DNA of 35,762 nucleotides from a virus. Taxonomy: Duplodnaviria; Caudoviricetes. Under the pieces are notes generated by a model. The model saw only the letters and a list, made by a program, of their open reading frames with translations, had not been told where the DNA came from and did no database searches. The translations under genes were made by a program, and so were the position numbers. The stretch covers positions 1-35,762 of IMG/VR virus record IMGVR_UViG_3300020045_003575; one strand, 5' to 3'. Below, piece after piece: positions 11,779 to 35,605 of the stretch; position 1 is the stretch's first letter; the number at the start of each line of letters is the position of its first letter.

Positions 11779-12182
11779 AACTGGCATTAATTTTAGCAAT
11801 AACATTGCTTATTTTTTTATTTTACGGTTGCGGTGGAACTCGAAGCGTCACAACCGAAAAACAATCTAATATTACAGTTTCAAATAATTACCAAGAAGGC
11901 TCAAAAATAGTTTTAGGCAATAGTTTTACATACACGCCATTTGATAGCGCAAAACCTATGATAATTGATAGTATAGTGTATAAAAACGTCATTATTAAAA
12001 GCACGAATTTAAAAGTAGTTGAAAAATGGAAAGACCGGAACATCATAAAAACAATTTCAATTGAAAAAAACAAACAAACAGAAAAAAAAGACAATACTAT
12101 TTTATGGATAGGATTGTCTTTCGTGATTTGTTTATTTGTGTTTTTGTGGTTTTATCTTAAAAAGGACAATATTTTTTTTTAG
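11748..12182 (+). CDS. putative unimolecular spanin (lipoprotein with C-terminal TM)
   Basis: Hydrophobic leader ending LFYGC (lipobox-like) plus C-terminal TM; follows the endolysin. Confidence 0.6.
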   Translation: MENYFRKHSLELALILAITLLIFLFYGCGGTRSVTTEKQSNITVSNNYQEGSKIVLGNSFTYTPFDSAKPMIIDSIVYKNVIIKSTNLKVVEKWKDRNIIKTISIEKNKQTEKKDNTILWIGLSFVICLFVFLWFYLKKDNIFF

Positions 12183-12342
12183 GTTTCGGTATTAAATTAG
12201 CGTATTCTTTTTTAATCTTCTCGGCTATTGCATCCCTGATGAATTGCCCAACATCAACATTATATGACTTCATTTTTTGAAGGATTAACAATTGATTTTC
12301 TGAAATACGAATAACCTTTGTTTTTATTAGTAGTTTAGCCAT
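12157..12342 (-). CDS. small ribbon-helix-helix-like DNA-binding protein
   Basis: Likely start ATG 12342: MAKLLIKTKVIRISENQLLILQKMKSYNVDVGQFIRDAIAEKIK; strand (KVIRIS) plus two helices, CopG/Arc-like pattern. Confidence 0.55.
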   Translation of the reverse strand: MAKLLIKTKVIRISENQLLILQKMKSYNVDVGQFIRDAIAEKIKKEYANLIPKPKKKYCPF

Positions 12343-12358
12343 TTTGTAATACAATTTA

Positions 12359-12385
12359 TGCGTGTAGCGGATAGTTATAGGCAAC
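12359..12385. repeat. terminal half-site (attI-like or truncated attC-like) at left end of array
   Basis: TGCGTGTAGCGGATA-GTTATAGGC; core at 12374-12382 is the reverse complement of GCCTATAAC at 12934-12942. Confidence 0.55.
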
Positions 12386-12397
12386 CTTGCGAAAATC

Positions 12398-13009
12398 TTA
12401 AAAGTGGTCGATTTGATTCCCAAATTGAAACCAACCTTCTCTTTTTTCTCGACTGAAAACATCAATCTTATTTTCGTTTGGATATAACGCTTCAATCATT
12501 TTGTAGGCGTATTCAGGTTTACGACTATGCTCCCTTGCTTTTTCTGAAAATACAGTCATAAATTTACCTCTTTGTTCTTTTGCAATAGGTAACATCTTTT
12601 CTTTGTAGTACCATATCAAATATTCGTGAGAATACCGAACAGTAAAAGCGGGAGCAACTCCGTTAGTTTTATCCCAAATAAATCTACAATGCCTTCTGTA
12701 TCCTCTTTTCTCCATATAATTATCACAATCATTTAGATATTGTTCAATAGTCCACATAAATACGGCGTGATTTTCAGCAGTGTTGTTGAGTATTTCTGTA
12801 TCCAACAAATCAAATATTTCAATAGTAGGCATAGTTTTGTAATCTAAACTTCTTCCTTGGTTTGGTCTTGCTTTTCTTAAACCACCTTTCTTTTTTAACC
12901 AAGGGTGATCAATCACCAAAACAGAAAAAAGCTGCCTATAACACGTGCTATAAGAAATAGCGGGTTCTGTGCTTTCTGAAAGTTCGGGTGTATTTGTAAA
13001 ATCTGTCAT
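12398..13009 (-). CDS. MT-A70 family adenine methyltransferase
   Basis: VIDHPW (normally DPPW), VFMWT, FIWDKTNG, REHSRKPE and KIDVFSREKREGWFQFGNQ motifs. Confidence 0.88.
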   Translation of the reverse strand: MTDFTNTPELSESTEPAISYSTCYRQLFSVLVIDHPWLKKKGGLRKARPNQGRSLDYKTMPTIEIFDLLDTEILNNTAENHAVFMWTIEQYLNDCDNYMEKRGYRRHCRFIWDKTNGVAPAFTVRYSHEYLIWYYKEKMLPIAKEQRGKFMTVFSEKAREHSRKPEYAYKMIEALYPNENKIDVFSREKREGWFQFGNQIDHF

Positions 13010-13067
13010 AAATTTAAAGTTTAGTTTTTATTAATCCGCTACTTCTTATAGCACCATACGTTATCAC
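12934..13067. repeat. attC-like palindromic site
   Basis: GCCTATAAC-acGTGCTATAAGAAATAGCGG ... CCGCTACTTCTTATAGCAC-catac-GTTATCAC. Confidence 0.8.
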
Positions 13068-13280
13068 TCATTTTACAGAACGTTTACTGATAACGAGTTC
13101 AGATTTCCTGATAATACAAATTTCATTCTCAAAAGGCGTTTCAAAATTCCATCTGTCAAGTGTAAATTTTGATATTCCAATTTCGTGAGTATTGCATAAA
13201 ATTGTCAAATCTCCGTAGTAAAAATGCTTTTCGTTTTCGATTGCATTTTTAAATTCAATGTGAAATAATTTTTTATTCAT
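13068..13280 (-). CDS. hypothetical protein (cassette)
   Basis: 70-aa ORF whose stop codon abuts the GTTATCAC core. Confidence 0.65.
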   Translation of the reverse strand: MNKKLFHIEFKNAIENEKHFYYGDLTILCNTHEIGISKFTLDRWNFETPFENEICIIRKSELVISKRSVK

Positions 13281-13424
13281 ATCTTAATGATTTTGGAAAC
13301 ATATTACTTTCTTCTGCTTTAGAATCAAACCATTTTACACAAAGCAATCTCCATTCAATTAACTAAATGTGTTTTTTTATTTGTTGGGAGATGTATTTTA
13401 CTTTATGTGTTTGTTCTTTTTTAC

Positions 13425-13494
13425 TTTGGTCTTGAACTGAAAGGTTCGGGATTTATCCTGCCGAAAATCCTCGCAAAGCCACGATACGTTAGCC
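13425..13494. repeat. truncated attC-like site (right arm only)
   Basis: ...CCTCGCAAAGCCACGATAC-GTTAGCC resembles the right arm of the 14414 site (CAAAGCCGCAGGAC-GTT); no left arm found; left bound approximate. Confidence 0.6.
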
Positions 13495-13501
13495 AATATT
13501 A

Positions 13502-14461
13502 TCACGAAACCTCGTTATAATCGACAAATGACTGCTGATAATTAATTTGTGAAACTTGTTGGTAATTAATTTCTTTTTCAGTTTGGTTTGGTTCTAAATC
13601 ATTTGCCGAACAAAATCCGTTACATTCAAATAGTGGTTTAACTGGAATTTCTTTAAAGTCAAATAAACTTTTGTTGTTCGGAAATTGCTTATTTGGAACA
13701 AGAAAAACTAAATCTGCTTTTGGTATTTTTTTAGCTTTTGCAATCGCTTCTTTACTTTGGTCTTTTAACATCGTTACAGCTTCTCCAGATAATTCAGTTA
13801 ATTGTTTTTCAACAACTGCCATTCGTAAATAAGTCATTTTTCTTTCTTTCCACATTTTTTGCCAATAACCCATCCCACCTTGAACGCAACCAGTTTTTAA
13901 ACAATTGTTATTATGAAATCCTAACCAGTAAGCTAATGGAATTGCAATAAATTCATATTTCAAAATTTCAATGCAATCATTTTTTGATAATGCGTGAAAT
14001 AACAAAGGAAATACTGGTTTACTTTCGGGAACATTCCATTTCATTCCTAATGCACGTTTATTTTCTGAAATATCAAATCCAAAAACTTGATGCGTGAACT
14101 TATTTTCTTTTTCCCATTTTTCACGAACTTTTCTTTTTAATTCACTTGAACAAATTGCACCAGTAGCAACATTTAAAGATTTAAACTTATACCAAACATC
14201 TTTTATTTTTTTGTAATCGCTACCAATTCTAGTAATAGTTTCAATTTGTATTCCATACCATTTTTCACAATCAGCTTTAAATCGGTAAGTATCATCATCT
14301 TCATTAAAAGTATCAATGAAAATAATTCTAATACGTTCTTTTCCATAAATCTGAATTGCTAACCAAATTGCAACTGCGGAAGTAACACCTCCAGACCACC
14401 AACAAATAACATCGGCTAACAGTGGTTTTGAGCAAGCGGGTATTTGGTTTAATTCAGTCAT
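13502..14461 (-). CDS. PAPS-reductase-like / PP-loop adenine nucleotide alpha hydrolase family protein
   Basis: WWSGGVTSAVA PP-loop, IFIDT, CSSELKR, LGFHNNNCLKTGCVQGG and ECNGFC cysteine clusters. Confidence 0.8.
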   Translation of the reverse strand: MTELNQIPACSKPLLADVICWWSGGVTSAVAIWLAIQIYGKERIRIIFIDTFNEDDDTYRFKADCEKWYGIQIETITRIGSDYKKIKDVWYKFKSLNVATGAICSSELKRKVREKWEKENKFTHQVFGFDISENKRALGMKWNVPESKPVFPLLFHALSKNDCIEILKYEFIAIPLAYWLGFHNNNCLKTGCVQGGMGYWQKMWKERKMTYLRMAVVEKQLTELSGEAVTMLKDQSKEAIAKAKKIPKADLVFLVPNKQFPNNKSLFDFKEIPVKPLFECNGFCSANDLEPNQTEKEINYQQVSQINYQQSFVDYNEVS

Positions 14462-14543
14462 TGTTTTGTATTTTTATTATTAGTGATTAATTCAATTATT
14501 AAGTTTTATTTTCCCGCCTGCACAAAGCCGCAGGACGTTATAT
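14414..14543. repeat. attC-like palindromic site
   Basis: GGCTAAC-aGTGGTTTTGAGCAAGCGGG ... CCCGCCTGCACAAAGCCGC-aggac-GTTATAT. Confidence 0.8.
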
Positions 14544-14572
14544 TCCAGCTTCGAGCAACTTTCTGGCGAAAG

Positions 14573-14821
14573 CTACTCTGGCTGTTTTTTGTATTTTTCA
14601 AGCCATTCATTATAAACCATTTCAGTTGAATATCCATTATTAAAATGGTCTTTACCGTTTCTGATATATTTTGAAAATTCAATACATTCTTGTTTTTTAT
14701 TTTGTTTCTCTTTTTCTAAAAAAGAATCTTCAATTAATCCTAAAACGCACAATAAATCATAATCGCCTCCATTCTCCGTCATACGTTCAATCATTCCTTT
14801 TAATTCCTGCATTGCTGTCAT
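14573..14821 (-). CDS. hypothetical protein (cassette)
   Basis: 82-aa ORF with ATTATG start context. Confidence 0.65.
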   Translation of the reverse strand: MTAMQELKGMIERMTENGGDYDLLCVLGLIEDSFLEKEKQNKKQECIEFSKYIRNGKDHFNNGYSTEMVYNEWLEKYKKQPE

Positions 14822-14826
14822 AATTT

Positions 14827-14922
14827 CTATTTTTTATAAATAAATTTTGCTATTGTAAATCCTATAAATCCACTTAATATCGATAATATTATTGAGTTTA
14901 TAATTGTATTGTATTCGTTCAT
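14827..14922 (-). CDS. small single-TM protein (31 aa)
   Basis: Read manually: MNEYNTIINSIILSILSGFIGFTIAKFIYKK*, ATTATG start. Confidence 0.45.
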   Translation of the reverse strand: MNEYNTIINSIILSILSGFIGFTIAKFIYKK

Positions 14923-14946
14923 AATTCGTGATGTTAAAAAATATAC

Positions 14947-15078
14947 CTACAACAATATATTGTACTTATAGCTAGATTTTGGTTTAATTTTTTGATTTGT
15001 AATTCTTGTTATTATTGGTCTTAACCCGTTACATTGTGACTTATCATTCGCTACAAGTACAATAAATCGACGTTAGTA
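14947..15078. repeat. attC-like palindromic site
   Basis: CTACAAC-aataTATTGTACTTATAGC ... GCTACAAGTACAATA-aatcgac-GTTAGTA. Confidence 0.75.
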
Positions 15079-15084
15079 GCAAGA

Positions 15085-15291
15085 CTACGATTCAATTTCG
15101 ACAGGAACATCTTTCCAGTCTCTATGCCCTAAATTACTTGTATGTAACTGCTGTAATATTTTTTCTGTTTTAGATGGTAACAAATGAATATTTTCGGGTT
15201 GTACATCCTTTTTTACAAATCTTAATCGCACACTTGGCTCCCATACTTCATCAACAGTTATAGTTGCATAATTAATCTTTTCTTTTTTCAT
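15085..15291 (-). CDS. hypothetical protein (cassette)
   Basis: 68-aa ORF filling one GTT...AAC unit. Confidence 0.65.
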   Translation of the reverse strand: MKKEKINYATITVDEVWEPSVRLRFVKKDVQPENIHLLPSKTEKILQQLHTSNLGHRDWKDVPVEIES

Positions 15292-15337
15292 TTTATTTAG
15301 TTTTTATAATTTAATATTCATTTTAAATTGCCGTCCA

Positions 15338-15475
15338 GCTACTAACATTTGCTAGTAAAAATGGCTTTATGGTTTTGCGTTTGAGTTATTAAGGAGTACT
15401 TAAGTACTGGTTTTTTCTTGCTGGCATCGGTGATTAATTCACACCACTTCTACTAGCAAAATACCGTTACTGGCT
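15338..15475. repeat. attC-like palindromic site
   Basis: GCTACTAAC-aTTTGCTAGTAAAAATGG ... CCACTTCTACTAGCAAA-atacc-GTTACTGGCT. Confidence 0.8.
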
Positions 15476-15869
15476 ATGTTGCGTGAGTCCTATTAAGATC
15501 AATATTCAAATGACAACTATTTCTTCTTGAAATTTCAATCTCATTTGATTCTAAAGCCTTTAAGATTTCTTTAGCATCTTTTTTTATAGTTTTTCTTTCA
15601 ATTCCGTAACCCCAAGAATTATGAGTTCCTTTCACGTTGTTTTTAAAGTCTAAAATTGAATAAACAATACTCTTTTTTAGTTGATTATACGTTTCTGTAA
15701 ATGATGAGAAATTTTCTTTTGCTTCATATTTTATTAAATCCGCATCGTACCATCTATGCAAATCCCTTGTGCATATTGCAAAATTTTCATTAATTTCATT
15801 TACTATCATTGGTGATTTTTCTCCAATAAAATAAACTTCTTGACCTTGTTTTAATTTTTTATTTTCCAT
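15474..15869 (-). CDS. hypothetical protein (cassette)
   Basis: 131-aa ORF whose stop codon overlaps the core GTTACTGGCTA. Confidence 0.7.
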   Translation of the reverse strand: MENKKLKQGQEVYFIGEKSPMIVNEINENFAICTRDLHRWYDADLIKYEAKENFSSFTETYNQLKKSIVYSILDFKNNVKGTHNSWGYGIERKTIKKDAKEILKALESNEIEISRRNSCHLNIDLNRTHAT

Positions 15870-15891
15870 TTTGTTGTGGATTAAAAAACAC

Positions 15892-16029
15892 AGCCAGTAA
15901 CATATGCTACATAATAGCTGGGTTTCGGGTTAAATTTAAAGTTTGTTTTGCACCTAAATTATTAGTCTTAAATCGATACTTTGGTGTGTGCTTTTCCCAT
16001 CCATCGTGTAGCATTCGCCGTTATGCCTA
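15892..16029. repeat. attC-like palindromic site
   Basis: AGCCAGTAAC-atATGCTACATAATAGCTGGG ... CCCATCCATCGTGTAGCAT-tcgcc-GTTATGCCTA. Confidence 0.8.
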
Positions 16030-16032
16030 ATA

Positions 16033-16227
16033 CTACAATATGAATTGTTCATCAATTTCTTTCTCATCAATTTCGTCTAAACTTTGAGGATATTCTTTTT
16101 TTAATTTAATCCATTCTTTTTTAGTCAATACCATTGCCGTAATTAGTCCAATAACATCAGTTCCGTACCATTTTCCGTGAGCAAATCCAATTAATTGTGC
16201 ATCTGCTAAATCCAATTTAGTTGCCAT
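16033..16227 (-). CDS. hypothetical protein (cassette)
   Basis: 64-aa ORF in the promoter-proximal unit. Confidence 0.65.
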   Translation of the reverse strand: MATKLDLADAQLIGFAHGKWYGTDVIGLITAMVLTKKEWIKLKKEYPQSLDEIDEKEIDEQFIL

Positions 16228-16268
16228 AATTTATATTTTTATTTATTTAGTTAATATTTGTTTTTGCC

Positions 16269-16292
16269 GTACTAGGCATAACAGGGCTACAG
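16269..16292. repeat. terminal half-site at right end of array
   Basis: GTACTAGGCATAAC (13/14 complementary to GTTATGCCTAATAC at 16020) followed only by AGGGCTACAG. Confidence 0.6.
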
Positions 16293-16307
16293 TTTAAAAG
16301 TTTAAAG

Positions 16308-16315
16308 CAAAGATA
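16308..16315 (-). promoter_or_regulatory. Bacteroidota -7 promoter box driving the cassette array
   Basis: TATCTTTG on the minus strand matches TAnnTTTG, ~25 bp from the first core. Confidence 0.65.
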
Positions 16316-16335
16316 TAACTTATTTTGATATAAAT

Positions 16336-16389
16336 AACCACCACCACGATAATTTATACTAATTCTAAATTAAGTCTGTGGTGGTGGTT
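16336..16389. promoter_or_regulatory. operator region: 12-bp inverted repeat around a 19-bp palindromic box
   Basis: AACCACCACCAC (16336-16347) / GTGGTGGTGGTT (16378-16389); ATTTATACTAATTCTAAAT (16352-16370). Confidence 0.6.
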
Positions 16390-16406
16390 TATTCAAATAA
16401 CATCCT

Positions 16407-16414
16407 TATATTTG
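16407..16414 (+). promoter_or_regulatory. Bacteroidota -7 promoter box, rightward early operon
   Basis: TATATTTG 25 bp before ATG 16440. Confidence 0.65.
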
Positions 16415-16439
16415 TCAAACAATTTAAAACATAAAAGTT

Positions 16440-16622
16440 ATGCAAGAAATCAAACACCTTTATAAAATGCTCAAGGACAAAAAAGAATTTTGCCAAGAAC
16501 TATCAAAAGAAGTAGAAACAAGTCCGAGAAGCTTGTATAATCATTGGTTCGGAAGTTTCTGGGCAATTCCGGAGAAGTATCAAAATTTAGTATTAACAAG
16601 ATTAAAAGAAAAACAACAATGA
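16440..16622 (+). CDS. Cro-like helix-turn-helix protein
   Basis: 60 aa, first gene after the divergent promoter; FCQELSKEVETSPRSLYNHW HTH-like. Confidence 0.55.
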   Translation: MQEIKHLYKMLKDKKEFCQELSKEVETSPRSLYNHWFGSFWAIPEKYQNLVLTRLKEKQQ

Positions 16623-17029
16623 AAAGAGCTATAGCCATGCGTTGTACGCAAGAACAATTTGACAGTATTAAGGATAGGATTGAGTTGTCCATTAAATCGG
16701 TTACTGACTTTAAAGAATATCCTTATTTAATAAACTTTGGTGATAAAAAATATATTTCAAATATAGATAAAAGTAACTATTGGGATAATTTTTGGAAACA
16801 AAATCCTAAAATATTCGAAACATTCAACGCTGATATATTTTTAGAAGCGTGTGGTGTTGAGGTTGAGAAACCTATAATGCAGATTTTTTCTTGTGGGGTT
16901 TGGGTTGATTATGCTGGAAAATACCGCCTTAAGCAACAACCAAACTACGAAAAAGAAATCGAAGCCTTGCAACAAAAAGCAAAAGAAAATGGGATGAAAT
17001 GTATAATTAATTTTGAGAAATTATGTTAG
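16619..17029 (+). CDS. hypothetical protein
   Basis: Likely start ATG 16619 (ATGA overlap with previous stop). Confidence 0.65.
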   Translation: MKRAIAMRCTQEQFDSIKDRIELSIKSVTDFKEYPYLINFGDKKYISNIDKSNYWDNFWKQNPKIFETFNADIFLEACGVEVEKPIMQIFSCGVWVDYAGKYRLKQQPNYEKEIEALQQKAKENGMKCIINFEKLC

Positions 17030-18981: not shown

Positions 18982-19157
18982 AAAACTACACTGGCGTAAG
19001 CTGGAATAAACAAAAACAGCGGTGGGTATCTAAAGTAGGCATTTACGATTGTGGATACTATACCGACCAAATTGAAGCCGTAAAAGCACGTGATTTATGT
19101 ATAATAAAACACGGATTGGATTATAAGAAATTACAAATTTTAAAACCTAAAGGATGA
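18978..19157 (+). CDS. AP2-domain-like DNA-binding protein (59 aa)
   Basis: Read manually: MKNYTGVSWNKQKQRWVSKVGIYDCGYYTDQIEAVKARD; ATGA overlaps at both ends. Confidence 0.7.
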   Translation: MKNYTGVSWNKQKQRWVSKVGIYDCGYYTDQIEAVKARDLCIIKHGLDYKKLQILKPKG

Positions 19158-19780
19158 GCCTAACAATAACAAACGAGGATAATATGTTGCTTATGGCAAG
19201 ATATCCTGACAATTACTTTGATTTAGCAATAGTAGATCATCCTTATGGGATTTCCATAAATATGAATATGGGACTTCGAAAAGGCAAAAAGAAAAACCAT
19301 ACTGTTAAAAAATGGGATGACGAAACTCCAACTGCGGAATATTTTAATGAATTATTTAGGGTTTCAAAAAATCAAATTATATGGGGGGGGAATTATTTTA
19401 ATTTACCATTAACAAAGTCTTGGATTTTTTGGGATAAAAAAGTACCTAAAGGTGTAGATTTTGCAGACGGAGAGCTTGCTTGGACTTCATTTGACAAAAC
19501 ACTTGTAAAATTAGAAGTGCCTTATTCAGGATTTCAAGGTATGGATGAAAATGGAAAAATACACCCGACACAGAAGCCTGTGAAGTTGTATAAAAATATC
19601 CTTGATAAATGGAGTGTTAAAGACTTTAAAATACTTGATACGCATTTAGGTTCTGGTTCAATTGCAATAGCTTGCCACGATTACGGATTTGATTTGACTG
19701 CTTGTGAACTCGATAAAGAATACTTCGATAAAGCAATGCAAAGAATAAATAACCACATAGCACAACAAAAATTATTTTAA
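19154..19780 (+). CDS. DNA amino-methyltransferase (N6-A/N4-C, beta-type order)
   Basis: FDLAIVDHPYG (normally DPPY), IIWGGNYF, HPTQKPVKLY, ILDTHLGSGS. Confidence 0.9.
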   Translation: MSLTITNEDNMLLMARYPDNYFDLAIVDHPYGISINMNMGLRKGKKKNHTVKKWDDETPTAEYFNELFRVSKNQIIWGGNYFNLPLTKSWIFWDKKVPKGVDFADGELAWTSFDKTLVKLEVPYSGFQGMDENGKIHPTQKPVKLYKNILDKWSVKDFKILDTHLGSGSIAIACHDYGFDLTACELDKEYFDKAMQRINNHIAQQKLF

Positions 19781-35496: not shown

Positions 35497-35605
35497 GTTC
35501 AATATTTCTTGCAGCTGTTTCCGTAGCATCTTCAATATCTTTTTCCGCTTCTTTGCCGTATTTTTTAAGATTGGAAATTACTTTATCAAGTCCTTTGAGT
35601 TCCAT
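35497..35605 (-). CDS. N-terminal part of the gp10-like gene (inverted; continues at window base 1)
   Basis: MELKGLDKVISNLKKYGKEAEKDIEDATETAARNIE; 35497-35525 is the reverse complement of bases 3-31. Confidence 0.75.

Follow-up and report, generated by a model that had tools for sequence, protein, structure and literature searches.

Putative start codons in the loops of recombination-site hairpins, and probable exchange of the leaders they encode, in an integron-like gene array of a phage

Introduction

Two enzyme genes of a tailed phage appear to begin inside DNA palindromes, which raises the question of whether a site for gene shuffling can also supply the start of the gene that it moves. 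An earlier note on this DNA had placed the ATG codons of an MT-A70 family methyltransferase gene (MT-A70) and a PAPS-reductase-like gene (PAPS) in the loops of attC-like palindromes, and both codons do fall between the arms (Table 1). The N-termini are encoded by the palindromes as proposed: loop, stem and core read MTDFTNTPELSESTE-PAISYST-CY in MT-A70 and MTELNQI-PACSKPL-L in PAPS, giving leaders of 24 and 15 residues, respectively. It is also true of both genes, over the first 150 in-frame codons, that no ATG lies between the core and the first motif.

The window (the whole stretch of DNA analysed) is an entire tailed-phage record of 35,762 bases with genes for terminase, portal, capsid, helicase and a chitinase-type lysin. 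The contig is 91% complete and has a G+C content of about 32%. Because of this G+C content and the organisms that carry the same sites, the host is probably a Flavobacterium-like member of the Bacteroidota. The contig ends carry a perfect 29-base inverted repeat (3-31 and 35497-35525) that is probably an assembly effect.

The system of hairpins with putative loop starts is real and widespread. Clusters of attC sites in phages, with methylases, are already published (Qi et al. 2023, PMC9892861, in the portion available); a search of open-access papers found no description of the loop starts, of the exchange of leaders or of this Bacteroidota system.

The cassette array

The array (12374-16282, minus strand) is bordered by the lysis genes on one side and by a divergent promoter region on the other, and consists of seven cassettes separated by AAC...GTT hairpins of about 123 nt. 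The core that adjoins the 5' end of a gene is referred to as the inner core and the far one as the outer core. Five hairpins of 122-125 nt are whole (AAC to GTT on the plus strand) and are accompanied by one half hairpin and two lone cores. Three sites with at least 16 of 20 paired bases are found in 12001-17000 versus none in each of 10 dinucleotide shuffles. Only two of the six window cassettes that have an inner core use a loop start (MT-A70 and PAPS); the other four begin at an ATG of their own on the near side of the gene, below the core (14922/14821, 15291, 15869 and 16227).

Table 1. Features of the array and its flanks
Positions	Strand	Feature	Remarks
12340..12386	+	Lone outer core without hairpin, GTT at 12374	Flank pairs at 10/12 bases with 5' flank of MT-A70
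12398..13009	-	MT-A70 family methyltransferase, 203 aa	Pfam MT-A70
12940..13062		Hairpin site 0, 123 nt	Inner core 12940-12942, outer core 13060-13062; loop ATG at 13009
13068..13280	-	Cassette gene, 70 aa, own ATG	No Pfam match
13455..13490		Outer arm and core (GTT at 13488)	Inner arm unrecognisable
13502..14461	-	PAPS-reductase-like protein, 319 aa	Pfam PAPS_reduct
14418..14539		Hairpin site 2, 122 nt	Loop ATG at 14461
14573..14922	-	Two small ORFs (14573-14821, 82 aa; 14827-14922, 31 aa)	Starts below core
14951..15074		Hairpin site 3, 124 nt	Without loop start
15085..15291	-	Cassette gene, 68 aa, own ATG	
15344..15468		Hairpin site 4, 125 nt	Without loop start
15474..15869	-	Cassette gene, 131 aa, own ATG	Frame open across core, no in-frame loop ATG
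15899..16022		Hairpin site 5, 124 nt	
16033..16282	-	First cassette gene, 64 aa (16033-16227), and lone inner core 16280-16282	Core without hairpin
16308..16315	-	TAnnTTTG match pointing into array	Only minus-strand match in 12200-16500

The lone core at 12374, with which the array closes distally, is a candidate for an attI-like entry site, and a lone core with a similar short sequence and a small gene also closes the arrays of L047, L049, L088 and L099. At the other end, the TAnnTTTG match is what we take to be a Bacteroidota -7 promoter element, a predicted one. Between 16280 and 16415, divergent matches to this element at 16315 (minus strand) and 16407 (plus strand) enclose an inverted repeat (16336-16389) that could be an operator. 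The region 13367-13490 has lost its inner arm, and contigs from other runs show the same region with a different outer arm, so that this cassette may be fixed in place. A search of Rfam with window positions 12200-16500 gave no match above the gathering score, and eight related loci gave only a tRNA.

The gene and its 5' hairpin as the usual cassette

The earlier note offered two possibilities, that each gene travels with the site on its 5' side or that shuffling swaps leaders, and both are partly true. Flanks on both sides could be compared for 185 sites, most of which came from one search pattern (118 loci). Hairpin pairs with at least 90% identity have the downstream gene in common in 401 of 526 cases and the upstream neighbour in 1, although one family, with 27 members and the same gene throughout, contributes most of these pairs. 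Counted by family, 90 copies of 13 hairpin families are associated with 36 downstream genes and 89 upstream neighbours. Since the downstream gene is common, the upstream neighbour varies, and the similarity of pairs with the same hairpin sets in at the outer core, the usual cassette is a gene plus its 5' hairpin. All cassette genes of the window lie on the strand opposite to that of the canonical gene-then-attC layout, and they usually travel with the hairpin on the 5' side.

The two ends of a gene also pair with each other, at 7.4 of 10 bases (n=83) versus 4.2 for the flanks of the site itself (n=201). Within the window the values are 54/72 and 18/60 (2 of 5040 permutations), and the cassette at 14573..14922 is the only one whose ends do not pair. 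In two other gene clusters the ends co-vary, with all seven variant positions matched at both ends. The pairing was considered as proof of crossover at the outer core alone, an argument that was dropped because these flanks accompany the gene in a crossover at either core. The ends of MT-A70 (12374-12386 and 12928-12942; L143) co-vary among relatives too, and pairing is kept even where a residue of the protein changes.

Probable exchange of leaders at the inner core

Near-identical hairpins precede unrelated genes. Between their two cores, site 0 and the hairpin of L001 are 95% alike, and the sequences outside the cores are unlike on either side; the 12 copies of the site 0 family head six genes, including those for a C-5 methylase and a PAPS-reductase-like protein. 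Site 2 has 11 relatives (85-95% identical), which come in two frame variants distinguished by a single loop base; they stand before nine other bodies, all joined in frame and none of them the gene found in the window, and the PAPS hairpin heads 10 genes among 12 copies. Pfam assignments confirm that unrelated bodies (MT-A70, C-5 methylase and PAPS_reduct) stand behind the same leader. Conversely, near-identical bodies carry different hairpins: the MT-A70 bodies of L144, L145 and L147 are 98-99% identical and their hairpin regions are 57-73% alike. Together these two patterns support the earlier proposal that shuffling swaps leaders.

The breakpoint lies at the inner core. Where the same gene has different hairpins (16 comparisons), identity is 88-100% at positions +1 to +12 and 44-69% at -2 to -6, against a background of 27-41%; where the same hairpin has different genes (50 comparisons), identity drops at +2. 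Contigs assembled independently from four public runs agree, with matches to the MT-A70 body ending at 12944-12945 and matches to the PAPS body at 14421-14431, and hairpin-only pieces in these contigs span 12938-13056 and 15898-16023. The best share of window words in any of the public sequencing runs was 0.09, and no RNA run was among those listed. Assembly chimeras were rejected as the source of the swaps, as many pairs have only about 5 bases in common at the join and the same pairs recur in several contigs, one of them in an isolate genome (L213). The swap is likely to be a site-specific event at the inner core. Second-strand exchange at the inner edge of the spacer was considered as its route and is disfavoured by the seven same-gene pairs in which position -2 differs; such exchange is excluded for attC x attI, according to the available part of PMC3458562.

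An alternative is that the loop start is genuine and the hairpin-gene cassette is fixed and crossed only at its outer core, with the mixed pairs generated by homologous recombination or gene conversion in the conserved arms through a phage annealase or RecA. Several swap pairs have 10-22 nt of the arm above the core in common (a feature partly forced by the search pattern), the hairpins of L145 and L147 are mosaics with only part of the loop in common, and the 27-member family keeps its gene, all of which would fit such exchange within the arms. However, seven pairs (L013/L024, L014/L029, L014/L033, L014/L053, L074/L086, window/L003 and window/L004) already differ at position -2 or -1, which leaves about 4-5 common bases, presumably too few for homologous exchange. 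Homologous exchange within the arms probably adds some swaps; that it accounts for all of them is unlikely.

It is less likely still that the hairpin was copied or grafted once, when a cassette was created, into a GTT-like target of a phage gene, and that this happened many times independently rather than by shuffling. One hairpin would then head many unrelated genes, as observed, and near-identical sites do flank different genes in L213. Species-specific attC repeats in chromosomal integrons likewise precede many unrelated genes. A single graft is difficult to reconcile, however, with bodies that are 98-99% identical and have the same 5' flank and different hairpins, which would need replacement after creation, or with the co-variation of the gene ends.

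Reading frame of the joins

All three frames are used (45, 23 and 23 of 91), and random re-pairing of hairpins and genes would be in frame in 23.5 of 63 cases (37%). Nevertheless, all 25 surviving joins are in frame. They belong to nine gene clusters with multiple hairpins, three of which carry hairpins of different frames. The cleanest mixed-frame case, L013/L024, has an indel 15 bases below the core, and frame mismatches appear to be repaired by indels. The 25 of 25 joins in frame point to selection on the joins rather than to a standing on/off switch.

The proposal that shuffling turns genes on or off by frame therefore found no support. A reversible switch, in which joining to hairpins of the wrong frame would silence and reactivate methylases among the phages of one population, would profit from the use of three frames, from the low yield of random re-pairing and from the mixed frames in three of the nine clusters. 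Off-state joins amount to at most 1 of 37 and 0 of 25, in assemblies, which drop rare variants and may therefore conceal a minority off state. Changes of frame come with compensating indels, both in L013/L024 and in the relatives of site 2 with a single-base difference in the loop. Such a switch is very improbable.

The loop ATG as a probable start codon

The evidence for the start is comparative. The test set comprised 125 distinct hairpin-gene combinations with enough downstream DNA, in 72 of which the frame is open for 80 codons from the core. An in-frame loop ATG is present in 63 of these 72, versus 8.8+-2.8 (maximum 17) when the loops are shuffled, and in 36 of the 37 combinations whose first 25 codons below the core include no ATG. 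Among 61 variants in nine hairpin families the loop ATG is kept in every one, and no stops occur. The leader sequence itself is hardly conserved (pN/pS = 0.57, p=0.054), a ratio which suggests that the frame matters more than the leader peptide. The bases at -13 to -11 of the loop starts are A in 73-77%, and words resembling a Shine-Dalgarno sequence are found in 0 of 62; the A-run matches that described for F. johnsoniae in the available part of PMC6847099. At -3, A is found in 37% of the loop starts versus 78% of 36 window genes. This scarcity would predict weaker initiation at the loop starts. Judged from sequence comparison, the loop ATG is very probably the start codon, and the same comparison lends good support to the suggestion that the site also acts as a translation-initiation module.

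Homologs whose genes lack the hairpin mostly lack such a leader as well. The MT-A70 homologs compared were the best 120 of 861, with the motif located by pattern in 107. The 16 closest ones listed have leaders of about 10 kinds, which end in CY, CC or RY, and among the matches listed, 84 of the 91 more distant motif-bearing proteins without a hairpin begin 2-14 residues before the motif. Two distant homologs, P0101 and P0116, have long leaders of another type, which perhaps stem from a different hairpin family. Among 20 PAPS loci, hairpin and leader occur together in 8 (two of these read by eye from the DNA) and the other 12 are without an arm-encoded leader. Leaders without palindromes, the outcome that would have spoken against the earlier note, did not occur in the loci whose DNA was seen.

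Apart from M1, the in-frame ATG, GTG and TTG codons among the first 150 of MT-A70 are TTG31, GTG32 and then M60. TTG31 and GTG32, which the earlier note did not list as non-ATG candidates, directly precede the motif I33-D-H-P-W; close homologs carry ATG at residue 32, and seven homologs are called from there. That the loop ATGs are unused, with translation beginning instead at non-ATG codons past the core and the long frames being artefacts of gene calling, would suit these two codons and the weak A at -3 and is nonetheless extremely unlikely, given the enrichment of the loop ATG, the loss of F28 (invariant in 17 of 17 aligned proteins) in a start at 31 or 32, and PAPS, where M1 and M140 are the only ATG, GTG or TTG codons in frame in the first 150.

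The methyltransferases encoded at 12398-13009 and 19154-19780 both read DHP(W/Y) at the catalytic motif instead of DPPW, which may reflect inactivation or sequence error. Among the matches listed, 102 of the 107 homologs with the motif have DPPW and none has DHPW. The AlphaFold model of MT-A70 is unusable (mean pLDDT 37.9).

A proposed mechanism for joining and exchange

The reading favoured here, and a probable one, is that bodies without a start are joined in frame to a hairpin that serves an integron-like system as a recombination site, with crossover possible at both of its cores. Each hairpin of about 123 nt would supply the ribosome-binding region, the ATG and a leader of 15-24 residues. 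In the common event, a tyrosine recombinase would cut the folded coding strand at the AAC of the outer core, and the gene would move together with its 5' hairpin. Less often, the other strand would fold and be cut at the inner core, so that the gene would receive another hairpin and leader. About two thirds of the joins at the inner core would be out of frame and would be purged or mended by a small indel, leaving survivors in frame. The enzyme would be a SAM4-type recombinase without the IntI insertion, provided by the host or another phage. A single promoter near 16315 would transcribe the array, and the loop start, with its A-run, mostly no A at -3 and a surrounding stem, would lead to modest expression of DNA-modifying enzymes.

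A more tentative extension is two-part gene assembly, in which the non-IntI recombinase uses both cores on purpose, reordering cassettes at one and grafting start-leader modules at the other, and grafts at the inner core give birth to new cassettes. If so, phages of Bacteroidota would build and retune methylases and other genes combinatorially. How a gene first joins a cassette recombination site is, to our knowledge, a long-open question in integron biology. The join between hairpin and gene leaves its mark in the reading frame, lies at a core of 3 bases and has in some pairs arisen recently, so that a simple frame reporter could score it. Hairpin leaders would also account for the odd N-terminal leaders on many phage methylases.

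Relationship to integrons and other systems

The site system works like an integron but does not belong to the attC class. Like attC, the sites are imperfect inverted repeats with AAC and GTT cores that fold on one strand, the gene strand having the lower folding energy in 84 of 93 site families, and comparison of breakpoints places the putative cassette boundary between the G and the TT of the outer (R') core. The attC boxes follow the consensus RYYYAAC (R'') and GTTRRRY (R'); the former is found in 7 and the latter in 8 of the 93 families. GTTRRRY is the R' consensus given in PMC9892861, in the portion available. The extrahelical bases that attC has opposite the cleaved AAC are replaced by 3-4 extra bases on the gene-strand AAC arm in 192 of 204 sites, in a scan that itself allowed 2-5 extra bases, and site 0 folds with no single bulge in the stem and no L-box extrahelical base. 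The likeness to attC that the earlier note had seen thus holds, whereas membership does not, for want of the box consensus and the L-box base. Having at least two sites in a row and no integrase nearby, the array does qualify as a CALIN. The hairpins are mainly 121-126 nt long, and a smaller group measures 83-88 nt.

The closest published relatives are the phage CALINs of Qi et al. (2023, PMC9892861), which, in the portion available, are likewise single-gene arrays with imperfect AAC/GTT hairpins, methylase cargo and no phage integrase. One of their sites, P12002L_attC1 of a Polaribacter phage, has arms that are unequal by 3 bases in the same way and is placed between two methylase genes on the coding strand; of six sites, it alone was not recombined by IntI1. 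Scanning P12002L did not reveal any long site; the supplement gave the positions of the two published ones, of which attC2 falls short of a full hairpin of the window class. The window differs from integron attC sites and CALINs in general in its boxes and missing L-box base, its antisense genes and its starts in the loop. Loop starts and leader exchange go unmentioned in the available text of PMC9892861, where 'start codon' and 'antisense' occur 0 times. A blastn search of annotated phages with site 0 gave no match.

For a start supplied by a recombination site, the closest precedent is ORF-11 of attI1 (PMC8876359, in the portion available). In ORF-11, ORF-17 and ORF-18 of attI1 and in short ORFs of attC, a start carried by the site crosses the crossover point and helps cassettes that have no initiation region. 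Unlike the loop starts, those starts lie in the fixed attI, where ORF-11 has a Shine-Dalgarno sequence, or on the sense strand, and serve mainly the first cassette, through translational coupling; in the present system every mobile hairpin has a putative start of its own on the antisense strand, fused in frame to the gene. Crossover in the AAC triplet of the other arm is documented too, as top-strand (R'') recombination of attC (Nivina et al. 2016, PMC5027507, in the portion available). It is known there as a rare error that inverts cassettes, whereas here it would swap leaders and leave a selectable in-frame join. The motif in PMC5737381, as far as its available text shows, is a different attC-like one.

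Phages of the T4 type contain PeSL (promoter-stem-loop) repeats, in which repeated hairpins separate small swappable genes. The window hairpins differ in not being near-identical (there is no long repeat family in the window), in having one minus-strand promoter match in the array instead of one per hairpin, and in having their junctions at a 3-base core.

A candidate recombinase and arrays in host chromosomes

No PF00589 tyrosine recombinase was detected in the contig, and the enzyme is therefore taken to be supplied from outside. IntI (TIGR02249 above cut-off) was found in none of five site-carrying genomes, the best matches skipping profile positions about 180-230. The best recombinase matches in site-carrying genomes are PF13495+PF00589 proteins of the SAM4 type. 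In a scan of one of 64 parts, with groups assigned by record titles, a site lay within 3 kb of a candidate recombinase locus in 7 of 36 Bacteroidota, 3 of 8 viral and 0 of 43 other loci, the last being a weak control since the sites are lineage-specific; the remaining 29 of the 36 Bacteroidota loci had no site. The SAM4-type recombinase is thus linked to the sites by association. In the phages L323 (2880-3756) and L328 (2820-3756) the array ends at a lone core just before a tyrosine recombinase gene of about 270 aa on the same strand, whereas in the chromosomes L256, L260 and L299 the array follows the 3' end of the recombinase gene. These observations point to a widespread integron-like system of Bacteroidota that tools based on IntI would likely miss.

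Bacteroidota chromosomes also contain these sites, there in the gene-then-site order. The chromosomal arrays next to SAM4-type recombinases (L213, L256, L260 and L299) have hairpins of the same family and length, but their genes mostly precede the site on the same strand and have their own starts. In Flavobacterium croceum (L213, 5443-6205), one antisense methylase cassette of the phage type lies inside a canonical chromosomal array. This suggests traffic between phage and host arrays, and a route by which phages could trade anti-restriction genes with the arrays of their hosts.
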